Shown one piece after another: positions 8,994 through 17,322 of a DNA stretch of 28,537 bases. Made by a program: the position numbers and the translations under genes. Below the pieces are notes generated by a model, which was not told the origin of the DNA, did not search any database, and was given only the letters and a program-made list of their open reading frames with translations. The DNA is taken from NCBI GenBank assembly GCA_943359425.1, contig CALRHN010000001.1, positions 1 to 28,537 of the forward strand, given 5' to 3'. Each line of letters begins with the position of its first letter. The first letter of the stretch is position 1. This DNA comes from Candidatus Nomurabacteria bacterium (GTDB lineage: Bacteria; Patescibacteriota; Minisyncoccia; Phycocordibacterales; UBA9973).

Positions 8994-10376
8994 TTATTTC
9001 GTCACTGCAAGTTCGAATATGAAAGACGAGCCTTTTCCTGCGCCCGCCGATTCGGCCCAGACGCGGCCTTTGTGCGCTTCGATGATCTGCTTGGCGAGAT
9101 AAAGCCCGAGACCGGAGCCGCCCGTGTTGACCTTGCCGCCTTCACCGCGGTTGAATTTCTTGAAGAGCGTCGGCAACGTCTCAGCAGATATGCCCATGCC
9201 GTTATCCGTGACGGAGAATACGACGTACTGCGGATCTTTTTTCACAGACACGGTGATAGTGCCGCCTTTCTCGGTGTATTTGATGCTGTTATCGATCAAG
9301 TTAAGCATGACTTGGCGGATTTTTTCCATGTCGCCGTTCACCATGATCGGATTCGCTTCGGGAGATGAGAATTCGAGTTTCAGGCCTTTGTGCTCGGCTG
9401 TGATAGACAGATCGCGGGCCAAATCGCTCGCCGCAGTTTTTATATCGAACGGCGCCATCTCGTATTTCATGCCGCCTTGCTCGATCTTCGTCACGTTGAG
9501 CAAATCTTCGACGACTTTCGTGAGATGATTCGTCGATTCGAAGACACGATCGATAGCGTCTTTCTGATTCTTGTTCACTTCGCCGAAAGAGCCTTCGAGA
9601 AGCATGGATGTGTAGCCTTTGATGGCCGTGAGCGGAGAGCGGAGCTGGTGGGATGCGAGGGAGAGAAATTCTGTCTTCAATTTGTCGAGTTCTTTCAGTT
9701 TCTCGTTCGCATCCTGCAATTCTTTATACAGGAAAGCCTTGTCGAGAGCAACGGCGATCACGTCGATGAAGCTGTTGATAGATTCCTGCTCGAATGTATT
9801 GAGCGTGTCATAGTTGCGGTTGAGGCCGAAGATGAGCGCGCCCAAGACTTCGCTCTCGGTCTGGAGTGGATACGAAAGGATCGTTTTCAAATGCGACTCC
9901 GTCGTGATCTTGGAAAGTTTCTCTGCAGGGATGAGACCGCCCCAGACGTCATTGATATCGTCGGAGAGGATGCGTTTCTTCTCGTAGATGACTTTCTTGA
10001 AGAATTCGTGATGCGAGACATCTGAAATGGTTACGTCTTTGAAAAGGAAGCCGAGCTGTGTGAGCATCTCCTGCATCCGCTCGGATTTCGCGAATGTCAG
10101 CGGCGTGAGCAGATCTTTTGTAGCATCGAATACTAAAATACCTGCGATCTCCATGTTCAGATCGGCGCGAATCGTTTCCGCTATTTTTTCAGAGAGTGCC
10201 GTCGGATCGAGCTTGAGGAGAGAAAGTTGATAGAGTTTGCGCAGGAGGGAGAGCGTCTTATTCGTGACCGCAAGCTCGGCATTCTGTTTGTAGAGGGTTT
10301 CATTGACACCTTGGAGGCTGTCATCCGGAAGAGAAGCTCCCGGCTCCTTTTGTTTTTTTGATCGAGAAAAAAACAT
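8994..10376 (-). CDS. Cytoplasmic GAF-domain sensor histidine kinase (460 aa)
   Basis: H box FLSLASHQLRSPLTAIKGY, N box QVMLNLIDNSIKYT, G1 VTDNGMGI, F box LFKKF, G2 GSGLGLYLAKQIIEAHKG. GAF-like N-terminal region; no transmembrane helix seen. Confidence 0.93.
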   Translation of the reverse strand: MFFSRSKKQKEPGASLPDDSLQGVNETLYKQNAELAVTNKTLSLLRKLYQLSLLKLDPTALSEKIAETIRADLNMEIAGILVFDATKDLLTPLTFAKSERMQEMLTQLGFLFKDVTISDVSHHEFFKKVIYEKKRILSDDINDVWGGLIPAEKLSKITTESHLKTILSYPLQTESEVLGALIFGLNRNYDTLNTFEQESINSFIDVIAVALDKAFLYKELQDANEKLKELDKLKTEFLSLASHQLRSPLTAIKGYTSMLLEGSFGEVNKNQKDAIDRVFESTNHLTKVVEDLLNVTKIEQGGMKYEMAPFDIKTAASDLARDLSITAEHKGLKLEFSSPEANPIMVNGDMEKIRQVMLNLIDNSIKYTEKGGTITVSVKKDPQYVVFSVTDNGMGISAETLPTLFKKFNRGEGGKVNTGGSGLGLYLAKQIIEAHKGRVWAESAGAGKGSSFIFELAVTK

Positions 10377-10381
10377 AGGAC

Positions 10382-10663
10382 TTATTTGAGGCTCGAAGGC
10401 ACTTGTTCGGGCGGTAACTCGGCTATGAGGTCCTGAACCGCTTCCTTACAGATCTCATTGGAAGCGCGACCGAAGAGATGCTCGTATTGAGCGACAAGAT
10501 TGTTTATGATTTGCTTGCTGTCTCCCGTTGTCGTGACTTCGCCTTTCGTGGAATCGACAACACTGAAGCCGGCAACTTTGCGTGCCTCATCCCAAGCCAC
10601 CGGCCCGATGATGAGTTCTTGCTCCTTGATTATTCTCACTGATATTTGATCAAAGATGGTCAT
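10382..10663 (-). CDS. Small conserved hypothetical protein (93 aa) in the sensor-kinase operon
   Basis: ORF packed between the membrane sensor and the kinase (20 and 5 nt gaps). RIIKEQELIIGPVAWDEA...LVAQYEHLFG resembles small proteins recalled from CPR signalling loci; not verified. Alternative start 10687. Confidence 0.7.
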   Translation of the reverse strand: MTIFDQISVRIIKEQELIIGPVAWDEARKVAGFSVVDSTKGEVTTTGDSKQIINNLVAQYEHLFGRASNEICKEAVQDLIAELPPEQVPSSLK

Positions 10664-10683
10664 GGCATGTATGGCGATAGCTA

Positions 10684-11520
10684 TCATACTTTTTGTTTCT
10701 TCGATAAGACTCGCGGGTCAAGCATCATGATGCCCAGAGAGAGGACGAAAACGGCCGTCGTAAACAAGAGATCAACCCAACCAGCAGGATAAAAAGTGTC
10801 GAGCGTCGTTGTATATGAAAATGAGAAATCAGCGATATACATGAGGGCGAAACCTGAAAGGATGAGATAGATGGCCTTCTTATAAACGCCGCCGAAGTAG
10901 TTGTATGAGAGTCCGTATATGACAGTTGCGATGGAGAGAATAACAACGTCTCCGACCGGATAGGCGAGATCGAAGAAGAATTTGAGCGCTCCATCAGAGA
11001 GTGAGAGATCAAGAGACCCTCCCCGGGCAACCGTGACGAGAAGATAGTATGAGAGACCTATGATGAGCGTGGGAATGAGCAATAAGAGTGCCTTGCCTTT
11101 CGAAGAACGAAGCGAGTACCGTGCTCCTGTCGCTCGAGAGAGCTGTATCATGCCCGCGACCCACAACGGCAAGCTCAATATGTATCCGACATCGGCAATG
11201 GAAGGATACGGGACGGGCACATTGAGGATAAAGTTATATACGCCGGAAAAAATATACGTACCGATCCCCCATGAGATGAGTCCGAGGGAGAAAAATACGG
11301 TAGCTCTGCCGAGGGCGCTTTTCAGAAAGCCCCAGCGCCGTGCAATAGAGAGACCGTACAATCCTCCGAACACGGGAATGAAGCCGAGGAAGAGCACTCC
11401 GTACAGGTTGTTCGAGAGAGAGTCCGTAATGTGCGCCAACCAAAGTATGGCGACGGTCAAAACGGCGAGAGCGTAGTCGATGATTAAAATATTCCGAGCA
11501 AGAGTTTTGTGTATATGCAT
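10684..11520 (-). CDS. Stand-alone polytopic membrane sensor-like protein (about 8 TM)
   Basis: Motifs VPYPSIADVGY, DLAYPVGD, MYIADF, GWVDLLF as in membrane input domains of GGDEF proteins and kinases, but no cytoplasmic output domain. Start uncertain (11520 or 11577); the track's extension to 12021 overlaps the next gene antisense. Confidence 0.75.
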   Translation of the reverse strand: MHIHKTLARNILIIDYALAVLTVAILWLAHITDSLSNNLYGVLFLGFIPVFGGLYGLSIARRWGFLKSALGRATVFFSLGLISWGIGTYIFSGVYNFILNVPVPYPSIADVGYILSLPLWVAGMIQLSRATGARYSLRSSKGKALLLLIPTLIIGLSYYLLVTVARGGSLDLSLSDGALKFFFDLAYPVGDVVILSIATVIYGLSYNYFGGVYKKAIYLILSGFALMYIADFSFSYTTTLDTFYPAGWVDLLFTTAVFVLSLGIMMLDPRVLSKKQKV

Positions 11521-11560
11521 GGAGATACCGAGGCGACCCCCTTGATGGGTCCACGGGTAT

Positions 11561-11590
11561 ATTGTAATATATTGCATATTTTTGTACAAT
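11561..11590. promoter_or_regulatory. Overlapping divergent sigma70 promoters (sensor operon / carbamoyltransferase)
   Basis: Plus strand TTGTAA(11562-67)-17-TACAAT(11585-90); minus strand TTGTAC(11589-84)-17-TACAAT(11566-61). Confidence 0.6.
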
Positions 11591-11598
11591 AGGCGCGT

Positions 11599-13326
11599 AT
11601 GAAAAAACCTGCCTATGTTCTCGGACTTAACTTTGTCTACCATGAAGTCTCGGCCTGCCTCCTCAAAGACGGCAAGCTTTTGGCGGCCGTTGAAGAAGAG
11701 CGTTTTTCCAGAATCAAACGAGGCAAGAAATGCCTGATCGATAACCCCGACGTCCTTCCCGTGCAATCGATCGAATACTGTCTCTCGATCGCGGGTATCT
11801 CTCTTCGGGAAGTCGACTACATCGGCCTGTCCTTCATGCCCGAGGATCGCCTGCGGCAGAACATCGGCGTTGACGAGTACCTCACCAAAGGCGACTGGGG
11901 AACGGCAACGGGAGAAAAGCTTTTCTATAAAAAACTCCAGAAAGTTCCGGGAATGATCAGTAAGCTCGCCGGACGAGATATGATGAAGAAGATCACCTGG
12001 GTCCCCCACCACATCTGCCATGCGAGTAGTGCATATTTTGTCTCCCCTTTCAAAGAATCTGCGGTGTTGACGATCGACGGCATCGGAGAATTTTCTTCGG
12101 CATGGATCGGCTACGGCAAGAACAATGCCATCACTAATCTCTACGAAATCTCTTATCCCAACTCTATCGGTTTCCTCTGGGAGAAAATGAGCAAATACAT
12201 CGGCTTTACCGAATACGATTCATCCAAGGTGATGGGCCTCGCCGCATACGGGAACTCGAAGAGATTTTATACAACCTTTCAGAAAATAGTGACGTTGACG
12301 CCGGAAGGGACTTTTACTGTTGACACTGACGTCATGCGCTTCCGAGTCGAAGATTACAGTCGTCTTGAAAAAATATTCGGTGTCAAAAGAATACACTCTC
12401 CGAAAGATATTCGAAAGGAGCAGAAAGATATCGCCGCCGCACTCCAGAAGATCACCGATGATGTCGTCATCCATGTCGCGAAATATCTCAAGAAGAAAAC
12501 CGGTTCGGATAATATCTGTCTCGCTGGAGGCGTAGCTCTCAATTGCGTGTGCAATAACGTTCTCATGAAGAGCGGCCTTTTCAAGAATATCTATGTACAG
12601 CCTGCTGCCAACGACGCGGGAACCGCTCTCGGAGTCGCCTACTATCTCTGGAACCAAGTACTCGGCCACAAGCGCTCCTTCGTCATGGATCACGTCTACT
12701 GGGGACCCGGATACTCTGACGCATCTATCAGATCTGCGCTCGACAAGAGCAAGGCTTCGTATCACAAGAGTGCCAATATTGCGAAAGAGCTCGCCGGAAA
12801 GATCGCCGAAGGAAATATCGCGGGTTGGTTCCAAGGACGCAGCGAATGGGGGCCGCGAGCGCTCGGCAACCGATCGTTGCTCGCCGATCCTCGCCGAAAG
12901 AACATGAAAAGGATCCTCAACGAACGCATCAAGAAGCGCGAGGGATTCCGGCCATTTGCGCCGAGCGTCTTGAAAGAAGACGCAGCAGGATGGTTCGTCA
13001 TACCGAAGAAGTCCCAGTCCATCTCGACCGAATTCATGGAGATCAATTTTGATATACAGAAATCAAAACAGAAAAGAATCCCTGCCGTGACGCACATCGA
13101 CGGAACGGGACGAGTGCAATTGGTGAATAAAAAAACCAATCCTCTCTATCACAAACTTATTTCCGAGTTTCGCCGCCTCACCGGAGTTCCAATCCTTTTG
13201 AACACTTCATTCAACGACAATGAACCGATCGTCTGCTCGCCCGAAGACGCGCTGAAAACGTTTCTGCGCACAAAAATGGACTATCTCGCCATAGGTCCCT
13301 ACCTCGTCAGCAAGAAAGCTAAATAA
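11599..13326 (+). CDS. NodU/CmcH-family carbamoyltransferase (575 aa)
   Basis: Kae1-like N domain (HEVSACL, EEERFSRIK, HHICHA, TIDGIGE, LAGGVALNC) and YrdC-like C domain (GRSEWGPRALGNRS, KKREGFRPFAPS, HIDGTGRVQ, LNTSFN). Confidence 0.93.
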   Translation: MKKPAYVLGLNFVYHEVSACLLKDGKLLAAVEEERFSRIKRGKKCLIDNPDVLPVQSIEYCLSIAGISLREVDYIGLSFMPEDRLRQNIGVDEYLTKGDWGTATGEKLFYKKLQKVPGMISKLAGRDMMKKITWVPHHICHASSAYFVSPFKESAVLTIDGIGEFSSAWIGYGKNNAITNLYEISYPNSIGFLWEKMSKYIGFTEYDSSKVMGLAAYGNSKRFYTTFQKIVTLTPEGTFTVDTDVMRFRVEDYSRLEKIFGVKRIHSPKDIRKEQKDIAAALQKITDDVVIHVAKYLKKKTGSDNICLAGGVALNCVCNNVLMKSGLFKNIYVQPAANDAGTALGVAYYLWNQVLGHKRSFVMDHVYWGPGYSDASIRSALDKSKASYHKSANIAKELAGKIAEGNIAGWFQGRSEWGPRALGNRSLLADPRRKNMKRILNERIKKREGFRPFAPSVLKEDAAGWFVIPKKSQSISTEFMEINFDIQKSKQKRIPAVTHIDGTGRVQLVNKKTNPLYHKLISEFRRLTGVPILLNTSFNDNEPIVCSPEDALKTFLRTKMDYLAIGPYLVSKKAK

Positions 13327-13831
13327 CAAATATGCAGAGTGCGACTGCGGATACCCATTCATCGCCGCCCGGATGCGCGATAGAGGCGGTTGTCGCGTGA
13401 AGAATTTCAATATCAAGTTCTGATGCGGAAACGCCTTTTTTCACCGAGAGCATTTCGAGCGCGAGCGTTCTCGCTTTTTCATCAACGGCATCTTTGCCGA
13501 GCGTCGTACTGTGAAATTCGGAAATATAACCGAATTGCTTGGAATCTTTCAGTTTTGCCATGCCGACCGATGCCGAAGCTATTTCCCCGGCCTGGTTCGT
13601 GTCCTGTCGTGCCATCACGCAGAAAGTGATCTGCCCCGGCGTGAGCATTGGAAAACCCTCTTCCGGAGTTATTATTTTACACTCTGCAGGAATGATGCTG
13701 GAAACACAGACGAGATTATGCGCGAGAGGACCTGCAGCTATGAGTGCGCGGTCAAAGGCTTGGAGATGGTCAACGTGCTGTCCGGTGCCTGATATGAAAA
13801 AAGCGTATTTGGGAAGAAAATTGTTTGACAT
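13319..13831 (-). CDS. pdaD: Pyruvoyl-dependent arginine decarboxylase family protein (170 aa)
   Basis: SGTG...LQAFDRALIAAG...NLVCVSSIIP (Ser-Ser self-cleavage site), FCVMAR, ASASVG...GYISE, C-terminal SAVALCIF. Overlaps the carbamoyltransferase 3' end by 8 bp (convergent). Confidence 0.85.
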   Translation of the reverse strand: MSNNFLPKYAFFISGTGQHVDHLQAFDRALIAAGPLAHNLVCVSSIIPAECKIITPEEGFPMLTPGQITFCVMARQDTNQAGEIASASVGMAKLKDSKQFGYISEFHSTTLGKDAVDEKARTLALEMLSVKKGVSASELDIEILHATTASIAHPGGDEWVSAVALCIFVI

Positions 13832-13846
13832 GGATTGCAGTATACC

Positions 13847-14419
13847 TTATTTGGAAGAAAATCTCGACCGCAGGGTTAGCAATAGGATCGAACCGGTATT
13901 GATGACCATATAGGCCGGGAAAATGATAATCGCAAATGTTCGGCTTCCGATCGCAAGCAGCAGATTTGCCGTATTGCCGAAAAAACTCATGCTCCACGAG
14001 AGTCTGCTCTCACTCTTGGGGTCTTTCATCGTCTTTACGAATGTGGGAATCAATCCGAGCGCATCGATGAATATACTCATCACCAGCGCCGAGACCGGTG
14101 AATCCGAAAGCGCCCAAAAAAGAAAACTGATGCCGGCGCCTATGAAGCAAACGATGTCGAGCGTCGTCCATCCTCCGACGCCATATTTTATGGAAAGTAT
14201 GGCAATACAGAGCGGTCCGATGAAATACGAGGCTGCGGACCACACGGTGTCCACTGCGCCAGAAGAATGATAGGAGAGAAAAAGCGTAAGGCCCACCAGT
14301 GTCCAGATGAACCATGTCGCGCGTTCAGGTTTCGTTTTTCTCTGTAGGACGGAGACGACATACGGCACAAATGCCAGTAATGTTACCGCACCGGCAAGTT
14401 CGCCTATGAGTGCATTCAT
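13847..14419 (-). CDS. Small polytopic membrane protein, PQ-loop/SemiSWEET-like (190 aa, 6-7 TM)
   Basis: Two internally similar halves (AFVPYVVSVLQRKTKPERATW and GLIPTFVKTMKDPKSESRLSW) with alternating TM helices. Fold assignment by resemblance only. Confidence 0.65.
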   Translation of the reverse strand: MNALIGELAGAVTLLAFVPYVVSVLQRKTKPERATWFIWTLVGLTLFLSYHSSGAVDTVWSAASYFIGPLCIAILSIKYGVGGWTTLDIVCFIGAGISFLFWALSDSPVSALVMSIFIDALGLIPTFVKTMKDPKSESRLSWSMSFFGNTANLLLAIGSRTFAIIIFPAYMVINTGSILLLTLRSRFSSK

Positions 14420-14486
14420 ACGGGAGAACTATAGCACGAGTTTAGAGGGAGATACAGGTGTCGGCAGAGGAAAAGTGGAAAAGAAA

Positions 14487-14512
14487 AGGACATCGATTTG
14501 TTTCGATGTCCT
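14487..14512 (-). terminator. Intrinsic terminator after the speA-ligase unit
   Basis: AGGACATCGA-tttgtt-TCGATGTCCT 10-bp stem, followed on the minus strand by a pyrimidine/U-rich tract. Confidence 0.7.
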
Positions 14513-14639
14513 ATCCTAAAAAATCTTCCGCACTTGTTCCAAAACAAAATGTCCCAGATGAAATCCGGTGAACAATACGAGAAAGCAAAATGTGGTGCTC
14601 ACGACCACGGCGATAAGGAGGAATGCTAGCACTTCCCCG

Positions 14640-15884
14640 TTAATTGTCAAAAATGACTGGCAACTGCACGCAATCGCTCGCTCCGTGGACAAGCATCTCT
14701 TTGCGGCCGGTAACTTTGATACCGGCAATACCCGTCGCCGAGACGTAGAGTGTTATCCGCAGATAGAATTCGGACATAACGCGAGAATCGCCTTCGAATA
14801 TCGGCAGAGAGGCCAGTTTCGGCTCCACGCGCTCTTGAACGATCCAGTGTGGAGCTTTGATATGGTGCTCGGCCGCCTCAGCGAGTATGGCAGAAAACCT
14901 TTCGGCATCGATGTCTGAAAACACGACTCCTTTCGCACCCGAAGAATAGACGGCCTTGGCGACCATTTCCGTGACTGTAGGAGATTTTGAGAATACGCAG
15001 GCCTCGTATTTTCCGACGAGCAAGGCAGTTGCCGGTATGAAACGATTCATACCTTCTTGTTTCGCCAGAAAAGGCAAGAATCCCTTGGAACCCAAGTAGG
15101 CTTTCGGCGGATACAACGCTCCCAACTCTCCCGAAGGATATCGGGCAAGAAGATATTCATGGACTCGGGGATACCGATCGAGGGATTCGGAAATTATGAG
15201 GATGGGACGCACTTTCTCTCCGTCGTGGAGAAGTTCCAGATCTTCTCCAACATCGTGCTCTCGCAAAAGGTGCACCGATATGCCTCGGAACGACATCGAA
15301 CGTGCAAGGATGGCATAGACAGTTTCGTAATACCGCTCTTTCTCCGATACGAGAATCGTCCAATCGTCTCCTACTCCCTCGTTTTGGACGGCACGAGCAA
15401 TGCTCTCCGCGATTGGATATGCGGGAACCCGTCCAGAGAGCGAGAGTGTTTCATCAAGGAGCGCAATCATCCCCAACGCTCGCGGATTATAGGTATCTAC
15501 CTCGACAATGGCATACGTCCCGTCAGTTTTCTCTACGAGATCGAGTTTCAAGAGCGAAGGAATCTTTTCCTCCGGATCTTTGCCGGGATTGAAGAGCCCG
15601 TGAGCAGCGCTCTTGCCCACATGCAAAAAACGAGCCTCTTCGTGAGAAAGGACTCGTTGATGCGCTAGCTCTGAAAAATGCTTTTCGAGATTGGCCACTG
15701 CTCCATACGCAGCCTTGGCAATCTCTTGGAGCTCTCTATGTGGGGGAGCGGTAAGGCGATATGCTCCAGGAGAAAGTATGTATGAGTGCCGAATCCGTTT
15801 TTCAGGCGTATCCCAGTAGTGTATATCGATGAGGAATCGTTTGAGTTCTGAAAAGCTTATTCCTGTGTCGATGATTTGTTCCAT
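14640..15884 (-). CDS. Circularly permuted ATP-grasp amide ligase, glutathionylspermidine-synthetase-like (414 aa)
   Basis: LKLDLVEK..G.Y.IVEVDTYNPRALG (R/K-x-D...E-x-N/D metal-binding motif), LGSKGFL, AKAVYSSGAKGV, WIVQERVE, C-terminal R-x-T...VHG. The order of motifs matches GSP-synthetase/CP-ATP-grasp enzymes. Confidence 0.72.
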   Translation of the reverse strand: MEQIIDTGISFSELKRFLIDIHYWDTPEKRIRHSYILSPGAYRLTAPPHRELQEIAKAAYGAVANLEKHFSELAHQRVLSHEEARFLHVGKSAAHGLFNPGKDPEEKIPSLLKLDLVEKTDGTYAIVEVDTYNPRALGMIALLDETLSLSGRVPAYPIAESIARAVQNEGVGDDWTILVSEKERYYETVYAILARSMSFRGISVHLLREHDVGEDLELLHDGEKVRPILIISESLDRYPRVHEYLLARYPSGELGALYPPKAYLGSKGFLPFLAKQEGMNRFIPATALLVGKYEACVFSKSPTVTEMVAKAVYSSGAKGVVFSDIDAERFSAILAEAAEHHIKAPHWIVQERVEPKLASLPIFEGDSRVMSEFYLRITLYVSATGIAGIKVTGRKEMLVHGASDCVQLPVIFDN

Positions 15885-15912
15885 AGGATAGCTCTAATTG
15901 TTGTAGTAAGAT

Positions 15913-17289
15913 TTATTTCCCGTCGCCGTTGCTCCAGCCGAAGAGGCGACCAACCATTTCTGATGTTTCTCTCTTGCGTGCGATTTTGACAACGCCGTCC
16001 TGTGCAATCAATTTCGCGGGAGACGAGAGGAGGCAGTGGTGCGATGCGAGGGCGTCTTGGTATGCGCCCGTGTCGAAGATCATGACGTACTGATCGGTGC
16101 TGTCTTTGAGCTTCGGCAAGAGAATGTAGCTGCCACCCGCAGTGTATTTGTCATCGGAATCGCATGACGAGCCTGCGAGCCAGACGCGTTTGAGTTCGCC
16201 GCCGGCCGCATTGTTAATCGGCGCGACATGCCATTTCTGATGGATTGCCCAGGTGTCGATGAGGTCATTCATAAAAGATCCGTCGATGACGTACCATGAT
16301 TTCGCATTGCCCTTGTGGATCGGCTTCTCTGCGATGACTTTGTAGATAGTGACCTGGGAAGGCGCGACGACGTATTGTCCCCATTCGACAGCAAGGTTGG
16401 GATGGCGAATACCTTCCTTGTCGGCGAGTTTCTTCAGGAGTTTGACGATCTTATTCGCCATTATTTTGGCCGTGTAGAATTTCTTCTTCTCGTAGGGAAC
16501 GCCCATGCCGCCGCCGATATCGAGGGTGTCGAGATTCGGATGCGTTTTTACCAGTTCTTTGTAGATATCGAAACCGCGCTTCACGCCGTCGAGCAAGCTC
16601 TTCTGGGTGCTGATCTGCGAACCCATGTGATAATGCAGGACTTTGAGATTGCGGATCTTGCCGAGAGAGAGGATGCGGCGCTCGGGAATGCCGAAACGGT
16701 CGATCTTCTTGTCCCAGCGCGAATCGGCTTTGATATCGAGGTCGACACGGATGCCGATGTCGCCTTTCATCTTGATCAGTTGTTCGAGTTCGCCTTCGTC
16801 TTCGGCGATCGGGATTATGTTGAGGCCTTTGGCCTTGAGTTCGACGACGAGTTTGAGATAGGCCTCCGTTTTCGGACCGTTACAGAGAACGCGGATCTTC
16901 GAGTGGAACTTCTCCCCTTCCCAGAGTTTCTTCACGATCCAGAGCTCGTTTTCGGATGTGACTTCGAGATGCGCGCCTTCGGAGAGGAGCGGCATCACGA
17001 CTTCCTTGTTCTGGTTCACCTTCATCGGATAGTGATAGAAGAATTTACCGCGATAGCCGTAGATCTTCATATATGCGTTGAAATACTCGATGAGATCGCT
17101 CAGGCGATGTTCGAGTATGAAGGGGAAAAGTATTTCGAGCGATGTGCCGTATTTGCGCACGAGCTGCGGGAGGTTGTAGATGTAGTTGCCTTCTTTGACC
17201 GTGAGTTCGCCGTCTTTCGTCACGTTGAAGAACTGCGTGTTAAATTCTTCACTGCCGAGCTTCCAGAATTTTTTCCAATTCTTTTTCAT
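15913..17289 (-). CDS. speA: PLP-dependent biosynthetic arginine decarboxylase (SpeA-like, short form, 458 aa)
   Basis: YPMKVNQ (PLP lysine, compare SpeA YPIKVNQ), LCNGPK, HYHMGSQI, LDIGGGMGV, EWGQY, SSCDSDD, TGAYQD. Fold-type III decarboxylase; arginine specificity inferred from SpeA-specific motifs. Confidence 0.85.
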   Translation of the reverse strand: MKKNWKKFWKLGSEEFNTQFFNVTKDGELTVKEGNYIYNLPQLVRKYGTSLEILFPFILEHRLSDLIEYFNAYMKIYGYRGKFFYHYPMKVNQNKEVVMPLLSEGAHLEVTSENELWIVKKLWEGEKFHSKIRVLCNGPKTEAYLKLVVELKAKGLNIIPIAEDEGELEQLIKMKGDIGIRVDLDIKADSRWDKKIDRFGIPERRILSLGKIRNLKVLHYHMGSQISTQKSLLDGVKRGFDIYKELVKTHPNLDTLDIGGGMGVPYEKKKFYTAKIMANKIVKLLKKLADKEGIRHPNLAVEWGQYVVAPSQVTIYKVIAEKPIHKGNAKSWYVIDGSFMNDLIDTWAIHQKWHVAPINNAAGGELKRVWLAGSSCDSDDKYTAGGSYILLPKLKDSTDQYVMIFDTGAYQDALASHHCLLSSPAKLIAQDGVVKIARKRETSEMVGRLFGWSNGDGK

Positions 17290-17322
17290 GCGGGTGATTG
17301 TAGTATAAAACCCCAGAAAAAG

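Follow-up and report, generated by a model that had tools for sequence, protein, structure and literature searches.

The window analyzed here is a stretch of 28,537 nucleotides (positions 1 to 28,537 of contig CALRHN010000001.1, GenBank assembly GCA_943359425.1) from a Candidatus Nomurabacteria bacterium. Between positions 11599 and 17289 it carries five open reading frames (ORFs), encoding a carbamoyltransferase (CarbT), a pyruvoyl-dependent arginine decarboxylase (PdaD), a small membrane protein, an ATP-grasp ligase and a short relative of SpeA, the arginine decarboxylase dependent on pyridoxal phosphate (PLP). A sequence-only reading of this DNA had named the same five genes, all of which are real ORFs at the positions listed below, and had joined them into one pathway. 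We consider, with about even confidence, that the locus is composite, i.e., two separately inherited arginine-to-agmatine modules placed in a variable slot of a conserved gene backbone, and that one of them, a cassette around PdaD, is an arginine/agmatine exchange unit. The assembly comprises 525,929 bases in 52 contigs and is 84% complete, and homologs of the window genes carry Patescibacteria or Paceibacterota names. In the gene-neighborhood comparisons, G numbers designate genomes and L numbers loci or contigs (L039 is GCA_004322205). The five genes and the hairpin among them are:

11599..13326, + strand: CarbT, carbamoyltransferase of the TobZ/GdmN/NodU family (Pfam domains, GdmN and TobZ matches)
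13319..13831, − strand: PdaD, pyruvoyl-dependent arginine decarboxylase (PvlArgDC profile)
13847..14419, − strand: 190-aa membrane protein with seven transmembrane (TM) helices and a SWEET/PQ-loop fold, candidate arginine/agmatine carrier (structure model)
14487..14512, − strand: terminator-like hairpin between the ligase and membrane-protein genes (10-pair stem followed by a T-run)
14640..15884, − strand: 414-aa ATP-grasp ligase of the glutathione-synthetase/GspS/YgiC fold (structure model)
15913..17289, − strand: short SpeA-like PLP decarboxylase, 458 aa, probable biosynthetic arginine decarboxylase (profiles, homologs)

The strong terminator-like hairpin (14512-14487, − strand) lies inside a 220-bp gap that separates the ligase from the membrane-protein gene, and on either side of it genes are tightly packed, with 28 bp between the SpeA-like and ligase genes and 15 bp between the carrier gene and pdaD. 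CarbT is convergent with pdaD, their stop codons overlapping. The three transcription units proposed from the letters alone (CarbT; SpeA-like gene and ligase; membrane protein and pdaD) agree with this hairpin and with the gene orientations.

Judged by family profile and catalytic residues, PdaD is the pyruvoyl-dependent arginine decarboxylase that it had been taken for. It scores 144.5 bits against PvlArgDC (PF01862, cut-off 22.7, E 3.5e-42) and 108.3 bits against TIGR00286 (cut-off 106.95), with a further 138.7 bits against NF009064, below the cut-off of 207, and its alignment to 1n2m and 2qqd retains the Ser-Ser cleavage site and the equivalents of M. jannaschii L31, D35, N47 and E109, the last three of which we take to have catalytic roles. 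The adjacent 190-aa membrane protein has no Pfam match and reaches the threshold of no family model (SemiSWEET_2, 19.3 vs 80 bits), and an Atlas feature search restricted to named clusters gave no usable match. Its structure model (predicted local distance difference test, pLDDT, 90.5) shows seven TM helices, and the best solved Foldseek matches are SWEET, the KDEL receptor, cystinosin and SemiSWEET (TM 0.53-0.64), with the C-terminal half also matching a PQ-loop/MtN3 Atlas cluster (TM 0.68). By hhalign its halves show a weak relationship (E 4.8e-4), in line with the earlier description of a duplicated-half protein. According to the model, the protein is of the SWEET/PQ-loop fold, i.e., a 7-TM 3+1+3 arrangement of two related triple-helix bundles. 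Cationic amino acids are transported by some PQ-loop proteins, PQLC2/Ypq among them. CarbT, named as a NodU/CmcH-family enzyme from the start, has both carbamoyltransferase domains at full length (Carbam_trans_N 2.5e-62, 211.7 bits; Carbam_trans_C 4e-69, 232 bits) and aligns end to end with GdmN, NovN and TobZ (E 1e-84 to 1e-93; best solved relatives GdmN 2.9e-93 and TobZ 1.1e-84). Its 159.7 bits against the NodU model, with a cut-off of 1000 bits, show that it is not NodU itself.

These three genes form a conserved and partly swappable cassette. PdaD and the carrier are adjacent in five genomes and three arrangements, CarbT (68-69% identical) joins them in three, and all five lie beside a sensor/adaptor/kinase unit that in the window is divergent from CarbT:

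11521..11598, no strand: divergent 78-bp intergenic region between the sensor operon and CarbT, with back-to-back promoter-like sites
10684..11520, − strand: multi-TM sensor-type protein, 278 aa, first gene of the sensor/adaptor/kinase unit
10382..10687, − strand: adaptor-like protein, 101 aa
8994..10376, − strand: soluble GAF-HisKA-HATPase histidine kinase

The gene order of L039 (S4-RpoA-L17-L13-S9-GrpE-DnaK-DnaJ-carrier-PdaD-<CarbT-sensor-adaptor-GAF kinase-TrpRS-AspRS, the last two being tryptophanyl- and aspartyl-tRNA synthetases) is that of the window minus the SpeA-like and ligase genes. G127 has PdaD-carrier-<CarbT (69%)-sensor-adaptor-kinase, G152 has PdaD-carrier-SET-sensor-adaptor-kinase and G585, from another order, PdaD-<carrier-methyltransferase (class-I)-sensor-adaptor, both of the latter without CarbT, while G043 shows PdaD-EamA-LPG_synthase_C-sensor-adaptor-kinase. 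The carrier and PdaD genes are at most 15 bp apart, or overlap. The synteny that the sequence-only reading had made its test is thus found for the trio of membrane protein, PdaD and CarbT (L039 and G127); the five-gene set occurs nowhere else.

The PdaD tree has two deep clades (100/100), with the window and L039 enzymes forming a long-branch pair sister to canonical PdaDs and those of G127, G152, G585, G043 and G027 falling in the other clade; a single clade of carrier-linked PdaDs was accordingly rejected. As the cassette PdaDs come from two deep clades and three arrangements, function rather than inherited order is likely to keep the genes together. None of 30 canonical PdaD loci examined has the carrier or CarbT (three have a SpeY-like gene, with or without agmatinase), and among 11 divergent PdaD loci from other orders only G585 has the carrier, the others adjoining unrelated genes (PheT, DnaX, Fpg, etc.).

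The cassette lies in an interval that is a variable, amine-themed slot, and the window carries two sets of genes there. The backbone reads dnaK-dnaJ ... cysS ... dnaB-trpS, and genomes of the same family have DnaJ-carrier-like-agmatinase-CysRS (cysteinyl-tRNA synthetase)-...-DnaB-TrpRS. Further relatives fill the slot with agmatinase alone, SpeA-like-SpeY-agmatinase, ligase-pyrB, EamA-PLP decarboxylase or SpeA-like-LPG_synthase_C-EamA-agmatinase; in G447 the order is DnaJ-SpeA-like-SpeY-agmatinase...EamA-LPG_synthase_C-HK-CysRS (HK, histidine kinase). In L218 (G447), L235/L236 and L037 (G043), an EamA carrier is repeatedly paired with an LPG_synthase_C-type (MprF C-terminal-like) transferase; the two adjoin decarboxylases and the kinase and seem to provide this slot with a different combination of carrier and modifier. 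Such very different gene sets among relatives, and a membrane-protein family that is widespread without PdaD, would also be expected if the dnaJ-cysS interval were simply a hot spot collecting accessory genes, PdaD and the membrane protein included, with no functional link between them. We find this improbable, given the PdaD/carrier adjacency in five genomes, three arrangements and two deep PdaD clades, the tiny or overlapping gaps between the two genes, and slot contents that are thematically narrow (decarboxylases, small carriers, group-transfer enzymes, agmatinase).

The second set begins with the SpeA-like enzyme. Both Orn_Arg_deC_N (PF02784, 7.6e-27) and Orn_DAP_Arg_deC (PF00278, 6.3e-6) exceed their cut-offs, and residues 48-320 match E. 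coli SpeA (3nzq) at 7.5e-33. The protein (458 aa, vs ~630 aa for full SpeA) aligns through residues 15-325 with SpeA 22-363 and stays far below the SpeA equivalog cut-offs (TIGR01273, 198.8 vs 624.1 bits; NF003763, 209.8 vs 369 bits). By these profiles it is a fold-III Orn/DAP/Arg decarboxylase with a SpeA-like N-terminal half, outside the SpeA equivalog, such that the earlier label of PLP arginine decarboxylase is upheld for the fold-III, SpeA-like character and not for equivalog membership. Its homologs number more than 1600, and the 120 highest-ranking ones are all from Patescibacteria at 70-83% identity. Across 80 metagenome loci (L103-L182), 55 have TGT (queuine tRNA-ribosyltransferase) upstream and 65 DUF192 downstream, while 15 have agmatinase close by, 18 a deoxyhypusine synthase (DS)/SpeY-like gene and 3 CN_hydrolase; not one of the 80 has the ligase, PdaD, the carrier or CarbT nearby. 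L235 and G447 likewise have the SpeA-like gene beside agmatine-consuming enzymes, and in its nearest homolog (83% identity) the same backbone reads DnaJ-...-SpeA-like-LPG_synthase_C-EamA-agmatinase-HK-<CysRS. ADC-SpeB-SpeY is a published homospermidine route (PMC10407285), and the matching position of the SpeA-like gene beside agmatinase and SpeY supports its predicted arginine decarboxylase activity. A literature search on arginine decarboxylase in Patescibacteria returned no relevant paper.

We also noted that the loci L103-L182 keep the SpeA-like protein at 69-75% identity across many Patescibacteria, an unusual degree of conservation, and that in the window's genome TGT lies on contig C15 and there is no DUF192. 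More distant orthologs at 53-61% identity (G111, G447, G465, G510, G485, G302, G538, G335 and G341) each match with exactly one in-frame stop (TAA, TAG or TGA), which may reflect a match that runs on beyond the natural C-terminus or a genuine break in the gene.

The two decarboxylases have different distributions. All seven sampled genomes of the window's family encode the SpeA-like enzyme and none of the seven PdaD. Class-wide, PdaD occurs in 83/401 genomes and the SpeA-like enzyme in 22/401, and both are present only in the window's genome (one co-occurrence vs ~4 expected if independent, counted from two lists), an independent distribution that argues for two separately inherited sets. Module 1 would then be the family's own biosynthetic arginine decarboxylase, feeding agmatinase and SpeY (homospermidine) in relatives and followed in the window by a slot-resident ATP-grasp ligase, usual in this slot in related lineages. 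Module 2 would be the swappable conserved cassette of PdaD, carrier and TobZ-type CarbT beside the sensor/adaptor/kinase unit.

As the sequence-only reading stated for the window, no agmatinase, agmatine deiminase or spermidine synthase is encoded there, and the genome search that it suggested found none in the 526-kb, 84%-complete assembly either, nor a carbamoyl-phosphate source; DS/SpeY and CN_hydrolase were not found in this assembly. No Arginase-family gene is present in the six genomes whose PdaD is transporter-linked (99-100% complete in five cases), and DS/SpeY is missing from five of the six, so that these genomes do not route agmatine to putrescine. In chlamydiae, the pyruvoyl enzyme AaxB works with the antiporter AaxC (PMC2720952). 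We therefore postulate, on the analogy of AaxBC and AdiAC and with a carrier of a different family, that arginine, which the cell cannot make, is taken up and decarboxylated by PdaD, and that the agmatine, not being converted to putrescine, passes out through the PQ-loop-type carrier, alone or in exchange for arginine, with the neighboring kinase unit sensing or regulating this traffic. What the data show are the gene identities, the folds, the conserved adjacency, the independent module distribution and the absence of agmatinase from the cassette genomes; the carrier's substrates, the exchange itself, the role of the kinase and an unrelated role of the ligase we infer.

Several points weigh against the exchange reading, the main rival of which is modification of agmatine by the transferases. 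In nearly every cassette a group-transfer enzyme (CarbT, SET, class-I methyltransferase or LPG_synthase_C) holds the same position, and given that a simple exchange needs no CarbT, this regular presence suggests that the amine is modified. Members of the carrier family are frequent (62 of 201 genomes) and mostly not accompanied by PdaD, so that the family's substrate is not tied to arginine or agmatine in general. The SpeA-like and ligase genes are probably co-transcribed, the ligase sits where the nearest SpeA-like relative has an LPG_synthase_C-type transferase, and the ligase resembles in structure enzymes that acylate polyamines (GspS, YgiC/YjfC; PMC12568646). Finally, in an assembly that is 84% complete, speB and speY could be missing by chance.

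The rival holds that the cassette makes, modifies, exports and senses a small molecule: PdaD-derived agmatine would be derivatized by CarbT (elsewhere by SET, the class-I methyltransferase or LPG_synthase_C), exported and detected by the kinase unit, the ligase might derivatize the SpeA-derived pool, and the product would be a small-molecule signal or a surface modifier. We regard it as possible, if doubtful. In its favor, CarbT orthologs (at least 68% identity; besides the window only L039 and G127, at the same position) are confined to three genomes with PdaD and carrier, always between these and the sensor operon, even with a PdaD of the other clade; a different group-transfer enzyme stands at the CarbT position in G152, G585, G043, G447 and L235; the cassette genomes lack agmatinase; and the location of the ligase directly after the SpeA-like gene, in the LPG_synthase_C position, keeps alive a minority case for acylation of agmatine. 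On the other side, CarbT is convergent with pdaD and hence not co-transcribed with it, and characterized TobZ/NodU-family members carbamoylate hydroxyl groups, of which agmatine has none. The three CarbT genomes (G000, G127, which is 99% complete, and G593) have no AA_kinase, no carbamate kinase, no ornithine/aspartate carbamoyltransferase (OTC/ATC)-family enzyme and no true carbamoyl-phosphate synthetase (CPSase), only weak CPSase_L_D2 matches on ORFs of 340-434 aa. CarbT paralogs (~40% identity, same order) reside in glycan-type clusters with GT1/GT4, SGNH/AlgX-like, FkbM and SxtJ-like genes, a methyltransferase-sensor unit occurs without a nearby decarboxylase (L004), and the ligase family is mostly found in genomes without an arginine decarboxylase.

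A sensor-linked "amine cassette" can also be conceived, in which a decarboxylase (PdaD, SpeA-like or another PLP enzyme), a swappable transferase (here the TobZ-type CarbT, perhaps also the ATP-grasp ligase) and a carrier make and export modified agmatine that the three-part kinase detects. If true, this would be an undescribed signaling or surface-modification system; we think it unlikely. As no carbamoyl-phosphate source was detected, CarbT might, like TsaC in t6A synthesis, form carbamoyl-adenylate with the amine and with CO2 from the PdaD reaction.

For the ligase, sequence-family searches (Pfam and NCBIfam at E<=0.01, phmmer against the PDB) gave no family, no GSP_synth (PF03738) match and an irrelevant best PDB sequence match. 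Foldseek searches with its AlphaFold model (pLDDT 84.9) retrieved glutathione synthetases, YjfC/YgiC, Cp1B and GspS with E 1e-14 to 1e-8 at ~13% identity (human glutathione synthetase 1.6e-14, YjfC 6.4e-13, GspS 7.9e-11; probability 1.0, TM 0.5-0.63), and two features typical of ATP-grasp nucleotide sites can be recognized by eye, a conserved Lys with a Ser-Ser-Gly-x-Lys-Gly loop after it and, separately, a Gln-Glu motif. The model thus indicates a circularly permuted ATP-grasp enzyme, and the earlier label "GSP-synthetase-like" holds at the level of fold only.

Its family is small (246 representatives among 1.84 billion), and its usual partner is a HAD-IIIA/YqeG-like phosphatase of ~150 aa, directly upstream in 17 of 17 genome loci (L044-L060) and absent from the window; no HAD homolog was found in the window's genome. 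The phosphatase and the ligase form an undescribed two-gene unit confined to Patescibacteria. None of these 17 loci has a decarboxylase or carbamoyltransferase within 8 kb, and a SpeA-like ortholog is missing at the ligase in all 17 and in seven metagenome contigs. On the metagenome contigs the ligase adjoins the HAD gene or pyrB-pyrC, and one of them (L002) has an unrelated 375-aa PLP decarboxylase ~3 kb away. PvlArgDC is absent from all six ligase genomes; five of them (G073 included) have no arginine decarboxylase of either type, and the sixth (G592) has an unclassified Orn/Arg/DAP-type PLP decarboxylase. A general tie between the ligase and the SpeA-like enzyme was rejected on these grounds (0/80 and 0/17 loci, ligase genomes without decarboxylases). 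Given that it normally occurs with the HAD phosphatase and without an arginine decarboxylase, the ligase probably acts on another substrate, and its role is probably unrelated to agmatine.

In the ligase tree the window's enzyme belongs to a nine-row clade (Shimodaira-Hasegawa-like approximate likelihood ratio test, SH-aLRT, 100), six members of which are in the dnaJ-trpS slot or adjoin a sensor unit. HAD-less ligases as a separate clade were rejected, since the HAD-less P0008 groups with HAD-linked members (SH-aLRT 99). The HAD phosphatase also precedes the ligase in L002, L003 and L004. All four HAD-less ligases (L005, L007, L008 and the window) have a carbamoyl-phosphate-using enzyme less than 2 kb away, i.e., aspartate carbamoyltransferase plus dihydroorotase in the first three and the TobZ-type enzyme in the window (11599-15884). 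This proximity may be coincidence or shared ancestry. On the amine-cassette reading, which we think unlikely, HAD-less ligases, near such an enzyme in four of four contexts, might alternatively supply the activated carbamoyl group.

The single five-gene pathway of the sequence-only reading, in which agmatine from both decarboxylases is acylated, carbamoylated and exported, would account for the adjacency of all five genes, for the lack of agmatinase and agmatine deiminase in the assembly and for ligase fold relatives that include polyamine-acylating enzymes (PMC12568646). The five genes are never together elsewhere, the SpeA-like gene and the ligase having been found apart in all other loci (0/80, 0/17 and 0/7), and they fall into at least two units with different distributions, split by the terminator-like hairpin and by opposite strands. 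L039 holds the trio without the SpeA-like and ligase genes, and in the 401 genomes the two decarboxylase types otherwise exclude each other. We thus consider this pathway very improbable; production, perhaps carbamoylation, and export of agmatine may still apply to the trio of PdaD, membrane protein and CarbT, and a pathway that includes the SpeA-like enzyme and the ligase as well finds no support.

The sensor unit deserves a closer description. The ORF originally listed for its first gene (445 aa, 10684-12021, − strand) was rejected as too long, as it overlaps the start of CarbT by ~420 bp; homologs in L039, G127 and G152 have 273-293 aa and an in-frame ATG lies at 11520, for which reasons we shortened the gene to 278 aa, and 10684-11520 is probably the real one. 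The sensor has no Pfam match. The adaptor always lies between sensor and kinase, with 50-60% identical homologs in L002, L004, L034, L035, L037, L039 and L231, and the kinase has HATPase_c (2e-28), HisKA (9.3e-17) and GAF_2 (2.2e-4) domains. The three-gene unit (a multi-TM protein of ~278 aa, a protein of ~95 aa and a GAF-HisKA-HATPase kinase) recurs across families, in the window (8994-11520, − strand) and in these same seven loci, with no response regulator near the units. It almost always adjoins a decarboxylase, a small carrier or a group-transfer enzyme (CarbT, SET, methyltransferase, LPG_synthase_C).

The promoter-like sites of the 78-bp region lie at 11562-11590 (+) and 11588-11561 (−), and the divergent sensor/CarbT layout is shared by G127 and L039. 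A search of the window against Rfam (gathering threshold) found no riboswitch or RNA family, hence no guanidine/ykkC-type element. The motif TATACTRCAAT (one mismatch allowed) has three copies in the window vs 0.45 expected, all on the − strand (11561-11571, 13834-13844 and 17297-17307) and each just upstream of a start codon (sensor operon, pdaD and SpeA-like gene, respectively); one possibility is a −10-type promoter element that serves mRNAs with short leaders. At the window's edge, TrpRS fragments at 1-375 (− strand) and at 6-383 of contig C38, which continues into AspRS, suggest that these contigs are direct neighbors, which would agree with the DnaB-TrpRS-AspRS order in relatives.

The biosynthetic capacity of ultra-small Patescibacteria is close to nil, and conserved accessory chemistry such as this probably matters for a host-dependent life. 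The cassette described here recurs in genomes that cannot turn agmatine into putrescine, and it links the decarboxylation of arginine with a SWEET/PQ-loop-type carrier, a transferase that can be swapped and a three-part sensor kinase of unusual build. Were the carrier to exchange arginine for agmatine, full-length PQ-loop-like proteins would gain a bacterial function, and Patescibacteria would have a new means of pH or energy homeostasis; modification and sensing of the amine would amount to a new signaling chemistry. Two poorly known families are defined as well, the short SpeA-like decarboxylase, very highly conserved (70-83% identity) throughout the phylum, and the HAD-coupled, Patescibacteria-only ATP-grasp ligase.

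Among known systems, glutathione synthetase, GspS, YgiC/YjfC and Cp1B share the circularly permuted ATP-grasp fold of the ligase, which differs from them in its ~13% identity, its lack of a Pfam match and its membership of a separate small Patescibacteria-only family that is normally HAD-paired and has no cross-genome link to polyamine genes. CarbT has the full two-domain build (Kae1-like and YrdC-like) of the TobZ/GdmN/NovN/NodU O-carbamoyltransferases; unlike theirs, its locus has no antibiotic or Nod-factor cluster, its genome shows no recognized carbamoyl-phosphate source, and the genes conserved around it encode a decarboxylase, a carrier and a sensor kinase, not glycan or polyketide functions. 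The ADC-SpeB-SpeY homospermidine clusters (PMC10407285) resemble what relatives hold in the same slot, i.e., a SpeA-like enzyme or canonical PdaD beside agmatinase and a deoxyhypusine-synthase homolog, whereas the window's genome and the six with a transporter-linked PdaD have no agmatinase, and SpeY was not found here or in five of those six. The membrane protein shares the 7-TM 3+1+3 build, with two related triple-helix bundles, of the SWEET/SemiSWEET/PQ-loop (cystinosin, PQLC2)/KDEL-receptor superfamily, from which it departs as a bacterial full-length form, not a SemiSWEET dimer, that stays below family-model thresholds. The closest parallels to the cassette are AaxABC and E. coli AdiA/AdiC. 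The predicted carrier here is a 190-aa 7-TM protein of SWEET/PQ-loop fold and not an APC-family antiporter, and the window cassette has no porin and comes with CarbT and a three-part sensor kinase. In common with these systems, an arginine decarboxylase (of the PvlArgDC family in Aax) stands beside a small-molecule carrier in a reduced-genome bacterium, an adjacency that is conserved here in five genomes and three arrangements, and, as with SpeA and AdiA in E. coli, the window's genome has a second, non-homologous biosynthetic decarboxylase.

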